From: an uncultured archaeon
GTDB taxonomy: Archaea; Asgardarchaeota; Heimdallarchaeia; Hodarchaeales; Hodarchaeaceae
NCBI GenBank assembly: GCA_964485715.1
Contig: CAZALJ010000016.1
Location: forward strand, 1-13,992
Direction of reading: 5' to 3'
Length of the DNA: 13,992 nt
Both the position numbers and the translations under genes were made by a program. Within the stretch, counting starts at the first letter, position 1; the number at the start of each line of letters is the position of its first letter. This document shows positions 1,553 to 11,737 of this stretch, piece after piece. The notes under the pieces are model-generated. The model saw only the letters and a program-made list of their open reading frames with translations. It was not told the DNA's origin and searched no databases.

Positions 1553-4168
1553 ATGGTATCAATTGACCCCTTAATGGAACCTACTAACCTTTTTGTCTCT
1601 GTACTTCTAACTTTCTCCCCCATAATCATATTATTCTTCCCTTATCTCTATACGCGGCGAAAAGGTGAAAACCTTTTAGCAATCATCTTTAATCGTGCTT
1701 ACATTGGGTTTATCATCTTCTACTTTGCGTATTTTATTTTTCCTAGTTTTTTGAACTATATTGTGCCAAATCCGACTCAATATTTGGATCAGGAATATTA
1801 TTCTGTTCCAGGTACAAATGATTATAGCACCAAATGGGATTCAGCTGCCAGTCCCGCGGCCGTGACACTCCCAGGAGTGCCCATGTTGTTTAGATATTTA
1901 ATTCAACATTTTGTGAATTCAATTGTACTCTACCTAACTTATCCTATTATAATTCTAGCTTTTGTTTTCGGTATTTCTCCGATTCTCTCTATGCTAATAC
2001 TGTTGTACCAAACTTGGGGTGAGAAAAGGGCAGAACGAAGACCTTTAAAGCGATTAATCAAAAATAATATTGATGAAATTAAGAGTTTTCAGAAACAGCG
2101 TAAAAAAGCAACTGAAAACGAGATTCTGGAGATTGACCGAGAAATTAGCGATTTGGAAAAAGATAAAATCGATTTGGAACAGCAATTGAAAGAAATTCGT
2201 AGCATTACCCAACGATTACAAGAAATCCAGTTTGAAATGGAAGTCTCACCTTTTCAAGAAATCAGAAAACGGGTGAAAGATAAGAATTGGGAGAATGAAA
2301 AAGAACTTCTGAAAGTGCTTATTGCCATCCTTCCCATTACACTTTTTCTTCTTATGACAATTTTGCAACTACTGGGGGAAACTGAAAATCCGAGCTTGTT
2401 ACAAGGCACTTCAATGGGATGGTTCTTAGAAATATTTTTTGCTTACATAGCTTCAATCGTTTTCTGCGTTTACCTCATTAAAGCGAGTAACTTGTCACGA
2501 AAGGGTAAATTCTTAGGAAATCAACTGTATATCGCAATGGTTCAGAGTCTATCGACTGTAGGTGCGATTATGTCGGGTTTAGCCGTTGTCCTCTTCCTGG
2601 CCTTGTGGCCCAATCAGATTTTTGTAATTTCTTATTTCGTGGTATATTTCATAATGGTTTCAATATTCTTTGTGCTTTTTCTGGATATTTTCGAACCATT
2701 TTCAATTTACTTGCTAATCAAATTTATTGAAACTTTTAAAAATCTCAAATTGGCATTAAAACGAGTTAATATCGCTGATGTCGCAAAATCAGTCGTAATG
2801 GGAGTGATTTTTGGTTTCCTTCTAGCTGCTGGTTTTCTTACATACCGTGCTATTATGGAAGGCCAATTCACATATATTGACCACGTTCAATACGATACTT
2901 TCTTTTGGTTCACGCAGAATTATTCTACTTTTTTCCTATGTGCGTTATTAATTTTATTTATTCGAAGATGGAATTGGAGTATAGTTGGAACCGTAGTAAT
3001 TACATATTTTTCGATGCTCGTTGTTAGCTTCATTATCTTTGGATGGTATAATTTAGAATGGTGGGACGCGTTAGGTTTCGATGATTCATTTTTCTTTGTT
3101 CGAGTGAGGAGGCTTCCTAAACCCCCTGTTACCTTAATCCCTCCTTTTACCACTTTGAACTTCTTTTTTGCTATCTTTACAAAGGAAAAACTAAACTGGC
3201 TAACGTCGGTTTGGAAAGAAGGCCTCTTTAACGATGTACAATTTATCATCCCAGAATTGCGTCAGGTTCCTGTGGTCTGGAAAGGAACGGTAGGATCAAC
3301 CTTTCTTGGACTTCTATCCGTTCCATATAATCTTATACATCCTTTTGCCATTATATTGACATACGGCGCTATTTTTTTCTTAGTTAAACAAAAATTCCAT
3401 GTCAGAACACAGAAAAGCGACAAGGAAGGAGAGGAAAAAATACAATACAAGTCGGTCTTTTCTGAGATAGGAAGACTTCCAAATTTAAGTGAATTGAAGA
3501 GTAAATCGGATATCATTCTGGTTGGAGCAAATCCTATTGATGATCCTGAATTAAACCAAAGGATAGACGAAGCCTGGTTAAAGATGGAAAAAGGACAGCA
3601 GTTACGTGGTGTGATTACTGGAAAAATAGAACCCCTAAATGAAATAACAAGTAAGAGTGGATTAACTCTTGTTGAGATCCATCGTATTTTAGATGAATTA
3701 ACTTTTGATCTCGAGATCCCATTCAATCAAGTTCTTACTTTACTGCACAGAGAATTTTCCTACTTCTTTGAAGAGGTGACAATTGACTCGCTCCACATAA
3801 TGATGCTTGATGGACGTGCTGTATTATCACACACTTTTGCAACTGAGTCTCTAGTTGAACCAGCGTTAGTAGCTGGTCTTTTTTCTGCCATCACTTCTTT
3901 TGCGAAAGAAGCAGTACGGAGTGAACAATTATTAAAGACCATTGACCATGGTGACGTGGTTCTAACCATAGAATATGCAAGGTGGGTTTTTGCTGCCATT
4001 TTTGCAGATAGTACCTCCACTGAGCTGCGTAAAAAGCTTGGTGAGTTTCTAACAGGTTTTGAGGAGAGACATGCTAAGACTCTTCCAATGTGGTTAGGTG
4101 ATCTTGATGTTTTTAAAGGGGATCTAGAATTCATAGACAAGACATTCTCTAGTGGAGGAACAACTTAA
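1553..4168 (+). CDS. Large polytopic membrane protein with an internal coiled coil and a cytoplasmic C-terminal wHTH-like segment plus longin/roadblock-like domain; function unknown
   Basis: 871-aa ORF. There are many hydrophobic 20-25 aa segments, about 4 before residue 160 and about 10 between residues 250 and 620. A charged heptad-like stretch spans residues ~165-235 (KSFQKQRKKATENEILEIDREISDLEKDKIDLEQQLKEIRSITQRLQEIQ). The soluble tail runs from ~residue 620 and ends in a beta-beta-alpha-beta-beta-alpha patterned domain (nt ~3782-4150). Confidence 0.85.
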   Translation: MVSIDPLMEPTNLFVSVLLTFSPIIILFFPYLYTRRKGENLLAIIFNRAYIGFIIFYFAYFIFPSFLNYIVPNPTQYLDQEYYSVPGTNDYSTKWDSAASPAAVTLPGVPMLFRYLIQHFVNSIVLYLTYPIIILAFVFGISPILSMLILLYQTWGEKRAERRPLKRLIKNNIDEIKSFQKQRKKATENEILEIDREISDLEKDKIDLEQQLKEIRSITQRLQEIQFEMEVSPFQEIRKRVKDKNWENEKELLKVLIAILPITLFLLMTILQLLGETENPSLLQGTSMGWFLEIFFAYIASIVFCVYLIKASNLSRKGKFLGNQLYIAMVQSLSTVGAIMSGLAVVLFLALWPNQIFVISYFVVYFIMVSIFFVLFLDIFEPFSIYLLIKFIETFKNLKLALKRVNIADVAKSVVMGVIFGFLLAAGFLTYRAIMEGQFTYIDHVQYDTFFWFTQNYSTFFLCALLILFIRRWNWSIVGTVVITYFSMLVVSFIIFGWYNLEWWDALGFDDSFFFVRVRRLPKPPVTLIPPFTTLNFFFAIFTKEKLNWLTSVWKEGLFNDVQFIIPELRQVPVVWKGTVGSTFLGLLSVPYNLIHPFAIILTYGAIFFLVKQKFHVRTQKSDKEGEEKIQYKSVFSEIGRLPNLSELKSKSDIILVGANPIDDPELNQRIDEAWLKMEKGQQLRGVITGKIEPLNEITSKSGLTLVEIHRILDELTFDLEIPFNQVLTLLHREFSYFFEEVTIDSLHIMMLDGRAVLSHTFATESLVEPALVAGLFSAITSFAKEAVRSEQLLKTIDHGDVVLTIEYARWVFAAIFADSTSTELRKKLGEFLTGFEERHAKTLPMWLGDLDVFKGDLEFIDKTFSSGGTT

Positions 4169-9700: not shown

Positions 9701-10221
9701 TTTATGTATTGAACCAGAAACACTTTTCAAGTTCTGTTGCTATCGATAAAATTTCAGCACATTTTAGTGCCTCACACGCTTTAGTTTCTGATCATCACAA
9801 AGAAGGACTTCATGGACATAATTACCTAGTTGAAATAGAGATCGAAGGGAGTATAGATATTGATGATATTGTTGTTGACTTTATCTTTCTAGAAAAACTC
9901 CTTTCTCAAGCCCTTTCAAGATGGGATCATTATACATTAATTCCATCAAAAAATAAACATATGAAAATACGTGAAAATAAAAATAATCTGGAAATTGAAT
10001 ATGGGAACCGTTTTTATTCTATCCCAAAGACAGAAATCAAGCTTTTAAACTGCACTAATGTCACTACAGAAGCATTAGCTCGATTATTAGGGAAAAAAAT
10101 CCGAAATCGTTTAAAAAAAGAAGCTTTTTGGAAAAGGATCCGAGTAATAAAGATTACAATCTGGGAAACATCATATTATCGGGCTAGTTATACTATTAAA
10201 TCCAATTCTTCAGGAAACTAG
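9697..10221 (+). CDS. 6-pyruvoyl-tetrahydropterin synthase / QueD family (COG0720) protein, Glu-x-x-HGH variant
   Basis: Zn-ligand pattern SASHAL...GLHGHNY. The family-typical C-terminal motif ITIWETSYYRASY is present. There is no in-frame ATG near the N-terminus. TTG 9697 overlaps the trxB stop (TTGA), and TTG 9709 is an alternative start. Confidence 0.75.
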   Translation: MIYVLNQKHFSSSVAIDKISAHFSASHALVSDHHKEGLHGHNYLVEIEIEGSIDIDDIVVDFIFLEKLLSQALSRWDHYTLIPSKNKHMKIRENKNNLEIEYGNRFYSIPKTEIKLLNCTNVTTEALARLLGKKIRNRLKKEAFWKRIRVIKITIWETSYYRASYTIKSNSSGN

Positions 10222-11008
10222 TAATATTTTCCTTTGGAAATCCTGAAATCTTCTGCCCTTGGCTGGTTAAATTTAAGCGAAGTCCATTATGTTGAGAATG
10301 AAAAGAGGATATTAACTCTAGAGCAATTTGTAATTTTTTGAGTTTTTTACTTCTTGTTTTCTTTATGGGGGAGTTGAGTGTACTATATTTACCAATCTTA
10401 GTACCAAAATCAAAACCAATTAGCCCGATCAGAGGAGATTGGAAATGAAATGCTAAAAAAATTGCTCGGTCACCGTCTGTAAACCCACCAAAATTAAAAA
10501 GAGTTTGTCTTGGTTTACATTGAGTAGTCCCCCATACATCATTTTTAGAAATGATATCATTGTATTGACTTATAAAGTAAGAAATTCGCTGTTGATTGTC
10601 ACCATGGGCATGAACTAATGTTAAAGCACCCCTTTCTATAGCCCATCTGATTGCATCTAAATCACCATCGAGATCGGTGACTACTATGGATGGAACGATA
10701 TTCTTTTGGTAAAATAATGTTGTTGCACCATCCACAGCGATCATTTGAAAATTAGACAAGAACTTCTTTGGAGTAAGTGCTGAAAAAATAGCTGAAAAGT
10801 CTTGTTCTAAGGAGGGTCCAGCTCCTGCAATAATTACAGGATTTTTGAGAACTGTTTTTAGTTTCTGCAGAATCTTATCCTTTTTAGCAGATGGGAATTT
10901 AATTAAATATGTTTCAAACAGCTGTGCTGACTGTTTATCAGCCTCAATATCGAAACCTAGCTGATCGATAATTTGATAATAGCTTCTCTTCCAATCTGGC
11001 CAATTCAT
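10196..11008 (-). CDS. mptE: MptE-like (DUF115/COG1634) 6-hydroxymethyl-7,8-dihydropterin diphosphokinase
   Basis: The motifs recalled for the DUF115/MptE family are IIAGAGPSL, VVTDLDGD and VHAHGDN. The size is 270 aa. The gene converges on and overlaps the PTPS-family gene by 26 nt (10196-10221). Confidence 0.65.
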   Translation of the reverse strand: MNWPDWKRSYYQIIDQLGFDIEADKQSAQLFETYLIKFPSAKKDKILQKLKTVLKNPVIIAGAGPSLEQDFSAIFSALTPKKFLSNFQMIAVDGATTLFYQKNIVPSIVVTDLDGDLDAIRWAIERGALTLVHAHGDNQQRISYFISQYNDIISKNDVWGTTQCKPRQTLFNFGGFTDGDRAIFLAFHFQSPLIGLIGFDFGTKIGKYSTLNSPIKKTRSKKLKKLQIALELISSFHSQHNGLRLNLTSQGQKISGFPKENITSFLKNWI

Positions 11009-11201
11009 ATCAAAAATCTCTAGTCAGGGGTAATTATTTTGATTTTGAAGAAAATTTACAAAGACAGTTGATTAATCGAACATTACTTTAAGAAAAAACT
11101 TGAGATTGAATAAGCTCGTTTAGCCACCATTGAATATTTAAAGACTCTTGAATGAGCTCCTTTCGGTTTGTAATCTCAGTAATAACCGATTTGCGCCAAT
11201 A

Positions 11202-11273
11202 ACTTGCGAGACTCTGCTGGAAGTTAAGTTAGGCTCCGTTTCGATCTGTATTGTTGTGCACGAGCCAACGGGA
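11202..11273 (+). pseudogene. Degenerate partial copy of the 5S rRNA 3' half plus leader, with no matching 5' half
   Basis: 66 of 72 positions are identical to 11549-11620 in my hand alignment. The copy diverges after ccaacggga and so lacks the 3' strands of helices V and I. No cacccgg...ccgaac box is nearby. A T6 run lies at 11305-11310. Confidence 0.6.
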
Positions 11274-11525
11274 GCCGCAATACCTCCGCGATATTAGAGA
11301 TTTGTTTTTTAGGAACCTATTGTTGGTGAATTTTCATCAATTTTAATATCAATGTCTTTTTTCTACGATTTTATTGAAATTTCTTTATCAATCTTGACTA
11401 TTTATCCTAACAATTTACAGGAGAGAATATTTAGGTTTTCTCAAATGTTCACATATATCTACTTGAACTACCAATAAATATAAAAGGATACGTAAATTTG
11501 TTCCTCCTGGTGTAAAATCTCACCG

Positions 11526-11533
11526 ATAAATAT
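11526..11533 (+). promoter_or_regulatory. TATA-box-like ataaatat about 25 nt upstream of the 5S leader helix
   Basis: The A/T motif position is consistent with a transcription start near 11553-11558. The corresponding sequence in the upstream decayed copy is not TATA-like. Confidence 0.4.
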
Positions 11534-11556
11534 TTTTGAGCTGTGCTGACTTGCGA

Positions 11557-11699
11557 GATCCTGCTGGAAGTTAAGCCAGGCTCCGTTTCGATCTGTACTG
11601 TTGTGCGCGAGCCAACGGGAACATCGGAAAGCTGAGCAATTAGCTCGGCCAAAGGGCCTGGGTAACACCCGGTCTCATTCCGAACCCGGAAACAGGATC
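11557..11699 (+). other. Leader/trailer processing stem with bulge-helix-bulge-like geometry enclosing the permuted 5S
   Basis: 11557-11563 (gatcctg) is perfectly complementary to 11693-11699 (caggatc). An adjacent 4-bp helix pairs 11564-11567 with 11686-11689. It is flanked by 3-nt bulges on opposite strands, at 11568-11570 and 11690-11692. Confidence 0.5.
11570..11691 (+). rRNA. 5S rRNA, circularly permuted gene order (3' half, 5-nt cap on helix I, then 5' half)
   Basis: The conserved archaeal 5S boxes are on the + strand: cacccggtctcattccgaacccggaa (11666-11691) and gttaagcc...ctgtac...ggaac (11570-11622). Helices I, II, IV and V can all be paired by hand. The unit is 122 nt. The minus-strand ORFs 11449..11715 and 11468..11668 are spurious. 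Confidence 0.75.
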
Positions 11700-11729
11700 C
11701 CCCTGTCTTAAGCACAACGTGATTCTAAG

Positions 11730-11737
11730 TTTTTTTT
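11730..11737 (+). terminator. T8 run downstream of the 5S trailer
   Basis: The sequence taagttttttttac begins 31 nt after the trailer helix. Oligo-T is the archaeal termination signal. Confidence 0.55.

Follow-up and report, generated by a model that had tools for sequence, protein, structure and literature searches.

The 5S ribosomal RNA (rRNA) is universal, as a rule no RNA gene is found more easily than its own, and the quality standards for metagenome-assembled genomes (MAGs) require a 5S gene. The Asgard archaea are the archaeal group held closest to eukaryotes and are often discussed as their sister lineage. Among RNA genes whose halves have been swapped, the closest described parallel to the gene discussed here is that for the signal recognition particle (SRP) RNA of Thermoproteus: the leader and trailer of this permuted gene form a bulge-helix-bulge (BHB) structure that is cut by the endonuclease EndA, the RNA is circular, and the gene had gone undetected (Plagens et al. 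2015; PMC4731332). The DNA analyzed here is a complete NCBI contig of 13,992 nucleotides (nt) from an Asgard archaeon (CAZALJ010000016.1), referred to in its full length as the window. Comparison of its sequence with those of relatives supports the presence of a genomically permuted 5S rRNA gene, in which the 3' portion precedes the 5' portion, together with a BHB-like leader/trailer stem whose cut sites would restore the canonical junction.

The SRP RNA of T. tenax and T. uzoniensis resembles this 5S rRNA in being an essential and universal RNA whose gene was missed because the halves are swapped, in having a short leader and trailer that form a BHB at the junction, and in having its natural ends joined in the gene. 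Circularization by EndA and the ligase RtcB has been demonstrated for the SRP RNA, but is proposed for the 5S rRNA from sequence. The two also differ in that 5S rRNA is a component of the ribosome, in that the hosts are Asgard archaea rather than Thermoproteales, and in the motif itself, which in the putative 5S precursor has no inner helix and builds its central helix with a borrowed strand, the 3' strand of mature helix III. Because of this borrowing, the 5S precursor would need a conformational switch. Most of the organisms with a permuted 5S gene are probably not hyperthermophiles, since their genomes are AT-rich.

The permuted tRNA genes of Cyanidioschyzon merolae are similar in that the 3' half lies upstream and a circular intermediate is formed (Soma et al. 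2007, as summarized in PMC4267664). There, the circle is opened again and becomes a linear tRNA with normal ends, whereas nothing suggests reopening of the proposed 5S circle, in which helix I is capped by only 3–5 nt. Archaeal 16S and 23S rRNAs are also circularized by EndA and a ligase acting on a leader/trailer BHB (PMC7758197, for the permuted 23S rRNA of Pyrococcus furiosus; PMC12918454), and an rRNA in circular or permuted form can be the mature product, but their genes are colinear and the permutation arises at the RNA level, whereas here the gene itself is permuted. EndA and RtcB occur in all archaeal genomes analyzed, 16S and 23S transcripts in circular form have been detected for Asgard archaea, and circular 23S rRNA can be the mature ribosomal form (PMC12918454). 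According to a 2026 study, circularization applies to 16S and 23S, "but not 5S". In brown-algal/stramenopile mitochondria, 5S rRNAs with a similarly non-standard connectivity have been described, in which helix I is closed or replaced by a hairpin (Valach et al. 2014; PMC4267664; Rfam family mtPerm-5S). In these, however, the ends lie at the alpha/gamma junction, the product is linear and permuted, there is no BHB, and the canonical order is not restored. In the window, the break falls in helix III (the beta domain) and is flanked by a BHB-like motif, and the best clan member in cmscan is RF00001, not mtPerm-5S. Full-text literature searches returned no report of a permuted or circular 5S rRNA in archaea.

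The 5S rRNA gene and its order

Both conserved halves of a 5S rRNA, in swapped order on the plus strand, had been described in an earlier note on this DNA, and the letters quoted there for 11526–11737 match the window exactly. Run over all 13,992 nt with gathering thresholds, Rfam detects no RNA family, and ARAGORN finds no tRNA in the window. In E-value mode, Rfam returns two sub-threshold 5S_rRNA matches, both on the plus strand: one at 11533–11640 (18.6 bits), whose well-aligned part spans model positions ~49–120, the 3' half of 5S, and one at 11641–11733 (20.8 bits), whose high-posterior part spans model positions 1–51, the 5' half. The two half-matches bear out the swapped order, the 3' part coming first. 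The native gene remains below the RF00001 gathering threshold of 38 bits because its order is swapped, not because content is missing.

The complete 5S rRNA occupies 11570–11691 (Table 1). Its 3' portion runs from the last two nucleotides of helix III and the UUAAG box through helix II's 3' strand, helix V, loop E and helix IV (GCGA loop) to the 3' strand of helix I; its 5' portion comprises the 5' strand of helix I, loop A, the 5' strand of helix II, and helix III with loop C (CCGAAC) as far as the AA bulge. The ends of a normal 5S rRNA would fall in the short loop that joins the two portions and caps helix I, which is 5 nt long in the window, 4 nt in two related loci (L013 and L060) and 3 nt in most others. 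The breakpoint lies where the earlier note had placed it, in helix III by the AA bulge, between A11690/A11691 and G11570–U11571, of which G11570 pairs with C11666 and U11571 with A11665. The predicted circle has the normal 5S length of 122 nt, again as proposed, and when it is folded as a circle, its minimum free energy (MFE) structure is the 5S three-way junction. Like a canonical archaeal 5S rRNA (RF00001), the permuted one has all helices and conserved boxes and a normal length (120–122 nt), but the canonical gene is colinear, whereas here the order is permuted.

Nine loci were re-ordered by removing the helix I loop and joining the 5' portion to the 3' portion. Their RNAalifold consensus is a canonical 5S structure of 37 pairs, with helices I, II, III, V and IV in the standard arrangement (7 base pairs (bp) in helix I, 8 bp in helix II, and 2 + 4 + 2 bp in helix III), and the four helices that had been paired by hand in the window (I, II, IV and V) all recur in it. 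Compensatory double changes are found in 21 of the 37 pairs, all five helices covary, and 97.9% of the cells are paired; in helix I, all seven pairs are always formed and three covary. Column shuffling never reached any of five measures (0 of 500 shuffles), and when partners were slid by 1–3 columns, pairing fell to 27–52%. Invariant in the nine-sequence alignment are loop C (CCGAAC), the UUAAG box, GAAGUUAAG, and loop E (GUAC/GGGAA); GAAGUUAAG is present only across the predicted ligation junction. A covariance model, R1, built solely from the re-ordered Asgard sequences recognizes ordinary bacterial 5S genes over model positions 1–117, with 33.8–56.4 bits and E-values of 4e-7 to 2e-13 (Actinoallomurus, 56.4 bits; Clostridia and Pseudorhodobacter, 36.8–38.9 bits; Dehalococcoidia, 33.8 bits). 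On the native permuted loci, the same model gives split matches at every one.

The permutation is not confined to the window: the same breakpoint was found in 17 further fetched loci (about 13 distinct sequences; loci are designated by L numbers). A scan of metagenomic contigs for CGGAA without a following G gave seven loci, all seven permuted alike. A pattern scan of a genome collection demanded GTTAAGC, with C at the seventh base, and so missed the commoner GTTAAGT type. It gave 52 loci, and those checked were bacterial tandem 5S genes or matches to a 23S end plus a 5S, with the exception of L013 ("archaeon isolate Dive96_bin3.136"), the sole archaeal record of that scan, which has a GC-rich 5S with the same permutation. 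Relatives of L013, found through a neighboring DHH-family gene, also have the permuted gene. The circles form three groups, one Hodarchaeales-like (77–98% mutual identity), one GC-rich (L013, L071 and L073), and one consisting of L060 alone, with 62–74% identity between groups. No gathering-level Rfam match was found at any searched locus with a permuted gene, that is, at loci other than L002, L067, L069, L072 and L074, which are further or cut copies of loci that were searched.

The surroundings of the gene are conserved as well. In the window and in L056–L059, it lies divergently upstream of an MptE-like gene (10196–11008, minus strand, in the window), and its syntenic slot is between a DRMBL-family gene and this MptE-like gene. 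The synteny holds in megabase-sized contigs from three NCBI assemblies, CP070695.1 (4.94 Mb), CP070760.1 (3.16 Mb) and CP070665.1 (1.39 Mb), as well as in JBHLKC010000011.1, two JGI contigs, and one Logan contig with its NCBI counterpart. The MptE-like homologs are labeled by their sources as Hodarchaeales, Hodarchaeota, Heimdallarchaeota or Promethearchaeota. Outside the clade, no 5S, permuted or colinear, was found near the MptE homolog of L070 (42% identical) or at the DHH locus of Promethearchaeum syntrophicum (L075).

The leader/trailer stem and the proposed maturation

How could a functional 5S rRNA be made from such a gene? The leader and trailer offer an answer, since they can form a stem next to the break. 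Its outer helix, P1, is a perfect 7 bp in the window, as the earlier note had it, and can be extended by G11555–C11701 over an A·C mismatch; it also covaries among relatives, so that the outer helix expected of a BHB is present (GAUCCUG/CAGGAUC in the window, and GAUAUUG/CAAUAUC, GAUUCUG/CAGAAUC, GACUCUG/CAGAGUC, GGGUG/CACCC and GGCG/CGCC elsewhere). A gap-free alignment of 13 distinct sequences was made with the leader anchored at the G of GUUAAG and the trailer at the last A of CGGAA. Over the five junction-proximal P1 pairs and the four central pairs, 94% of positions are paired, and compensatory changes occur in five of the nine pairs (four of the five proximal P1 pairs and one central pair). 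The covariation score of 0.494 compares with 0.152 ± 0.032 for shuffled alignments (none of 500 shuffles reached it), and slid controls gave 17–45% pairing. The central helix, formed between four nucleotides of the leader and helix III's 3' strand, consists of C-G, U-G, G-C and G-C in the window and is CCGG/CCGG in seven loci. In L065, its second pair is U-A, and helix III has likewise changed from C-G to U-A.

BHB motifs combine a stem of 4 bp with 3-nt bulges, which are cut at symmetrical positions (PMC7758197). In the window, AAG and AAA form 3-nt bulges on opposite strands, each 3' of its central strand, which is the correct BHB polarity and agrees with the earlier description. The 5' strand reads outer helix, four central nucleotides and bulge, and the 3' strand reads four central nucleotides, bulge and outer helix. 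The polarity derives from the canonical tRNA intron at 37/38, where nucleotide 38, the last of the three in the bulge, adjoins the anticodon stem. Hodarchaeales-like loci have AAG as the 5' bulge, and the GC-rich lineage has AGG; the 3' bulge is AAA everywhere except in L071 and L060 (AAU). The bulge register is constant in every locus, although L060 fits only with a shift of one A. Predicted cuts after the second nucleotide of each bulge, followed by ligation, would give CCCGGAA-GUUAAGCC, which, read in this register, is the canonical 5S junction that the earlier note had expected.

Several features of the stem weigh against BHB-mediated maturation. There is no inner helix: UUAAG faces GAAC, and constrained folds give no pairing beyond the 5' bulge, a weakness already conceded in the earlier note. 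Because of this, the motif is at best a relaxed BHB and departs from the strict hBHBh' form; the relaxed definition accepts "at least one" bulge (PMC4731332). How far such relaxed motifs are tolerated would depend on the type of EndA in these organisms. Of the 13 distinct sequences, 8 have the 4-bp central helix claimed earlier, as does the window (with one G-U), but not the other five, which have CCGA and 3 bp with an A·C or A·A in place of the fourth pair (7 of 16 tabulated loci). Since the inner part of helix III, CCGG/CCGG, is palindromic, the leader can pair with either of its strands, and when the precursor of the window is folded, the MFE and the centroid structure both place it on the 5' strand, with the 3' strand in a small hairpin. 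Forcing the BHB conformer costs 0.1–5.9 kcal/mol across loci, and 22 kcal/mol in L060 if its register is not moved by one position. Only two loci tell the strand alternatives apart, and both favor the 3' strand of helix III that the BHB uses: in L065 a leader U makes a Watson-Crick pair with the changed helix III A, and the L058 leader makes three pairs with the 3' strand versus two with the 5' strand. Another competing structure raised by the earlier note, a trailer hairpin acagg/cctgt (11692–96/11702–06), was rejected, being in neither the MFE nor the centroid fold; it would compete with the covarying P1. L060 (1240–1460) has peculiarities of its own: its leader/trailer helix is 11 bp long (GCCTAGTAAGG/CCTTACTAGGC), its leader contains an inserted hairpin, and GGTCAG is duplicated, which provides two alternative central helices.

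In the proposed pathway, transcription would run from the promoter box to the T-run listed in Table 1 and give a precursor of about 230 nt. P1 would form, and the next four leader nucleotides would pair with the 3' strand of helix III, leaving AAG and AAA as opposite-strand 3-nt bulges of a relaxed BHB. The tRNA-splicing endonuclease EndA would then cut after the second nucleotide of each bulge, at 11569/11570 and 11691/11692, and the RNA ligase RtcB would join A11691 to G11570. With the leader released, helix III could form, yielding a covalently closed 122-nt 5S rRNA with CCCGGAA-GUUAAGCC at the junction and helix I closed by the short loop. The signature of ligation in RNA would be CCGAACCCGGAAGUUAAG(C/U)(C/U), which is not contiguous in the DNA. 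As the 5S rRNA would be excised like a BHB intron, the leader and trailer could, more speculatively, be ligated into a second small RNA of ~100 nt (...CUGGAA joined to ACAGGAUC...), which may have a role of its own.

The start of transcription, cleavage by EndA, ligation by RtcB, the circular form of the mature RNA, and the status as sole 5S copy are all things that we infer. It is nevertheless likely that this is a functional permuted 5S gene of a Hodarchaeales-like (Heimdallarchaeia, Asgard) archaeon, matured by EndA cuts and RtcB ligation. That the permuted gene is the only 5S in the Heimdallarchaeia-related Asgard archaea, and that the mature 5S is a circle closed by the tRNA-splicing machinery, is a bolder claim, toward which the evidence leans slightly. 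The proposed maturation route is well motivated. The restoration of a permuted RNA gene by the splicing machinery is a known principle that would here be applied to a universal ribosomal RNA. For two closed Heimdallarchaeum genomes, prediction of a 5S gene was not possible (PMC8813620), and a permuted gene that is missed by standard models would explain this.

If the proposal is correct, it would add two firsts: an rRNA gene that is permuted in the genome of a cell rather than of an organelle, and a 5S rRNA that is naturally circular. The repair of scrambled genes by EndA and RtcB would be extended from tRNA and SRP RNA to rRNA, and the claim, as it now stands, that in archaea 16S and 23S but not 5S rRNAs pass through circularization would be contradicted. 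Given the position of the lineage, it would bear on the differences in rRNA maturation at the archaeal-eukaryote node. For MAG annotation, permuted 5S genes would call for a dedicated model.

Table 1. Coordinates in the window of the permuted 5S rRNA gene, its leader/trailer stem and flanking elements
Feature	Position	Strand	Basis or remark
5S 3' portion	11570..11637	+	Rfam half-match ~49–120, consensus fold, covariation
Helix I loop AAUUA, 5 nt	11638..11642	+	Caps helix I where normal 5S ends would fall
5S 5' portion	11643..11691	+	Rfam half-match 1–51, consensus fold, covariation
P1 5' strand GAUCCUG	11557..11563	+	Pairs with 11693–11699, perfect in the window
Central helix 5' strand CUGG	11564..11567	+	Pairs with C11686–G11689, the helix III 3' strand
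5' bulge AAG	11568..11570	+	Predicted cut A11569/G11570 by the canonical BHB rule
3' bulge AAA	11690..11692	+	Predicted cut A11691/A11692; A11690–A11691 is the conserved helix III AA bulge
P1 3' strand CAGGAUC	11693..11699	+	Partner of 11557–11563; covariation
Decayed paralog of the whole permuted unit	11130..11311	+	R1 match 11165–11284, 28.7 bits; alignment with the intact gene, L064 and L057
TATA/BRE-like promoter box aataaatataaaagg	11473..11487	+	~90 nt upstream of G11570; conservation
Leader hairpin UGGUG/CACCG, 8-nt loop	11508..11525	+	MFE and centroid folds; probable precursor 5' end
Tentative outer helix P0 5' strand	11542..11550	+	Pairs with 11705–11716; MFE fold
Tentative outer helix P0 3' strand	11705..11716	+	MFE fold; holds the "ttaagc remnant"
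T8 run	11730..11737	+	Likely transcription terminator

Alternative explanations

A permuted gene need not give a circular product. The gene could be functional with a linear mature RNA, either because the ends in helix III stay un-ligated or because the circle is opened again, as could happen in the helix I loop, and nucleases other than EndA could act on the leader/trailer stem. There is precedent for this in the organellar permuted 5S rRNAs, which stay permuted in the final linear RNA (PMC4267664), and in the circular 16S and 23S rRNAs, which are classically intermediates that are re-linearized; the relaxed nature of the BHB and the fact that it is not the MFE conformer point the same way. 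However, symmetrical cuts would, in all three groups of sequences, produce the 5S junction with nucleotide precision, and the BHB-excised RNAs described in PMC4731332 and PMC7758197 are joined by the ligase. Moreover, a nick would adjoin the invariant AA bulge inside helix III, with one side held by just 2 bp, which makes ligation likelier than a permanent nick, and the 3-nt helix I loop of most loci offers little to cut. A linear product thus seems unlikely compared with the ligated circle.

Another explanation is that the locus is a non-functional, rearranged relic and that a working colinear 5S gene lies elsewhere in the genome. Debris derived from 5S does exist here, since the window holds one decayed copy (see below), and a preprint lists a 5S gene for the Candidatus Hodarchaeum weybense MAG. 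That listing also tells against a permuted gene as the sole copy, but it stands in a formulaic description, with the method unstated, and a partial match to one half may account for it. A relic would not be expected to keep 97.9% pairing with 21 covarying pairs in sequences down to 62% identity, nor invariant loop C, loop E and UUAAG boxes, nor a conserved promoter-like box, flanking helix and DRMBL/MptE-like synteny. The failure to predict any 5S gene in the closed Heimdallarchaeum genomes (PMC8813620) also speaks against a colinear copy elsewhere.

What a true relic looks like can be seen next door. The decayed paralog, ~350 nt upstream of the intact gene, retains the promoter box, leader hairpin, leader, CUGG-AAG, a trailer remnant and the T-run. 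Of the 5S 3' portion, it keeps only the initial ~51 nt (11223–11273), having lost ~70 nt through an internal deletion, and its loop E is mutated from GUAC to GUAU. This paralog is evidence that duplication takes in the whole permuted unit; it is nearer to the L057/L064 type than to its intact neighbor. As the decayed copy displays the unconstrained state, the comparison argues that the intact gene is under selection, and a relic is thus very improbable as an account of the intact gene.

That the swapped order is due to chance, or is an assembly artifact, as might be feared for a short metagenomic contig (13,992 nt), can be dismissed, since three assemblies of the population agree at 100% identity over 451 nt around the gene (the window, the 18.9-kb ENA scaffold ERZ23499174 and the Logan contig SRR10836661, the latter two also encoding the MptE-like protein and having 22 and 5 mismatches to the window, respectively, outside this region), and since orthologous loci from many unrelated samples and assemblers, the 17 further loci among them, have the same order.

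Flanking signals and variant loci

Upstream of the functional permuted gene favored here, all Hodarchaeales-like loci have a box with the consensus aaTAAATATAtAAAG, followed in most by GACTCTTGAA, ~85–95 nt upstream of GTTAAG. In the window, this box is the TATA/BRE-like element (BRE, B recognition element) of Table 1; it is presumably the promoter, and transcription would start ~25 nt downstream, near 11508, at the leader hairpin. Counterparts of box and hairpin are found in L055–L059 and L061–L068, and the hairpins of relatives, compared by eye, lie in the same place with other sequences but conserved pairing (CTGGTTTG/CAAACAG, ATTAGTG/CACTAAT, CTTGGTTTG/CAAACAAG). The earlier note had pointed instead to a TATA-like box at 11526–11538, which is not conserved in relatives and is thereby ruled out. 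With it falls the leader of ~12 nt that the note had implied; because of the conserved box and hairpin upstream, the leader is probably about 60 nt long.

The T8 run noted after the trailer is indeed there, and most Hodarchaeales-like loci are T-rich ~35–50 nt past the trailer helix. The GC-rich group has a conserved box of its own, TTTTATAAA, and its trailer forms a covarying hairpin whose loop is UGCG. A further helix outside P1, P0, appears in the MFE fold of the window, and similar helices can be read in L056, L058, L059, L013, L071 and L073. It is tentative, because single-sequence shuffles often reach the same length (in 3–99% of trials). The trailer also holds the "ttaagc remnant" (11708–11713), which had been taken as a trace of a tandem 5S duplication. 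It is missing in relatives and sits in and beside the candidate P0 strand, and thus provides no evidence for such an origin.

Tandem 5S genes do occur elsewhere. Three loci from Acutalibacteraceae/Clostridia MAGs (L004, 174–413; L005, 4194–4431; L009, 4053–4292) have two full-length 5S genes in tandem, 4–6 nt apart, and there are ~40 similar pattern matches among gut Clostridia MAGs, of which these three were checked. Loss of the outer halves from such a tandem could give a permuted gene with a 3–5-nt helix I loop.

The 5S rRNAs of the GC-rich lineage (L013, L071 and L073) have a G+C content of 62–69%, and the neighboring proteins, by eye, seem to have a high share of K, N, I, F and S, which would fit AT-rich genes. 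A GC-rich 5S beside AT-rich-looking genes hints at thermophily. The isolate name of L013 suggests a sample taken on a dive, and its best named homologs are just 33–34% identical.

Some loci have altered copies of the gene. In L068 (2662–2810, plus strand) and L069 (1–~150, cut at the contig end), loop C carries a 30-nt insertion (context ...CATTCCGAA[AGATATGAAGGAATATCTTCATTCCGGGAA]CCCGGAA) that repeats CATTCCG. It was rejected as a BHB intron, an explicit search for the order helix, 3-nt bulge, 4-bp helix, 3-nt bulge and helix being negative; it folds as an extended hairpin and may be an expansion segment or the mark of a damaged copy. L066 (~2612–2768, minus strand) has a 37-nt tandem duplication of helix III and trailer (CCGGTCTCATTCCGAACCCGGAAACAATATCCCCTGG twice), and L067 has a single copy of the 37-nt unit and a short deletion further on; the two come from JGI assemblies of near-identical populations. 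The difference could be either real heterogeneity or an effect of assembly at the palindromic CCGG.

Open reading frames (ORFs) of 80–88 codons overlap the permuted 5S in the window (11449–11715, minus strand), in L066 (2662–2904) and in L069 (1–249). Two of them have been recorded by gene callers as hypothetical proteins, but they are almost certainly spurious.

Finally, on the minus strand of L060, ~230–335 nt upstream of its permuted 5S, lies a tRNA-like sequence (on the plus strand, TGGAGCCAAGACCGGGATTTGAACCCGGG...) that is matched by neither ARAGORN nor Rfam. It has an encoded CCA and a long insertion after the anticodon stem, and from these features it may be an intron-containing tRNA.

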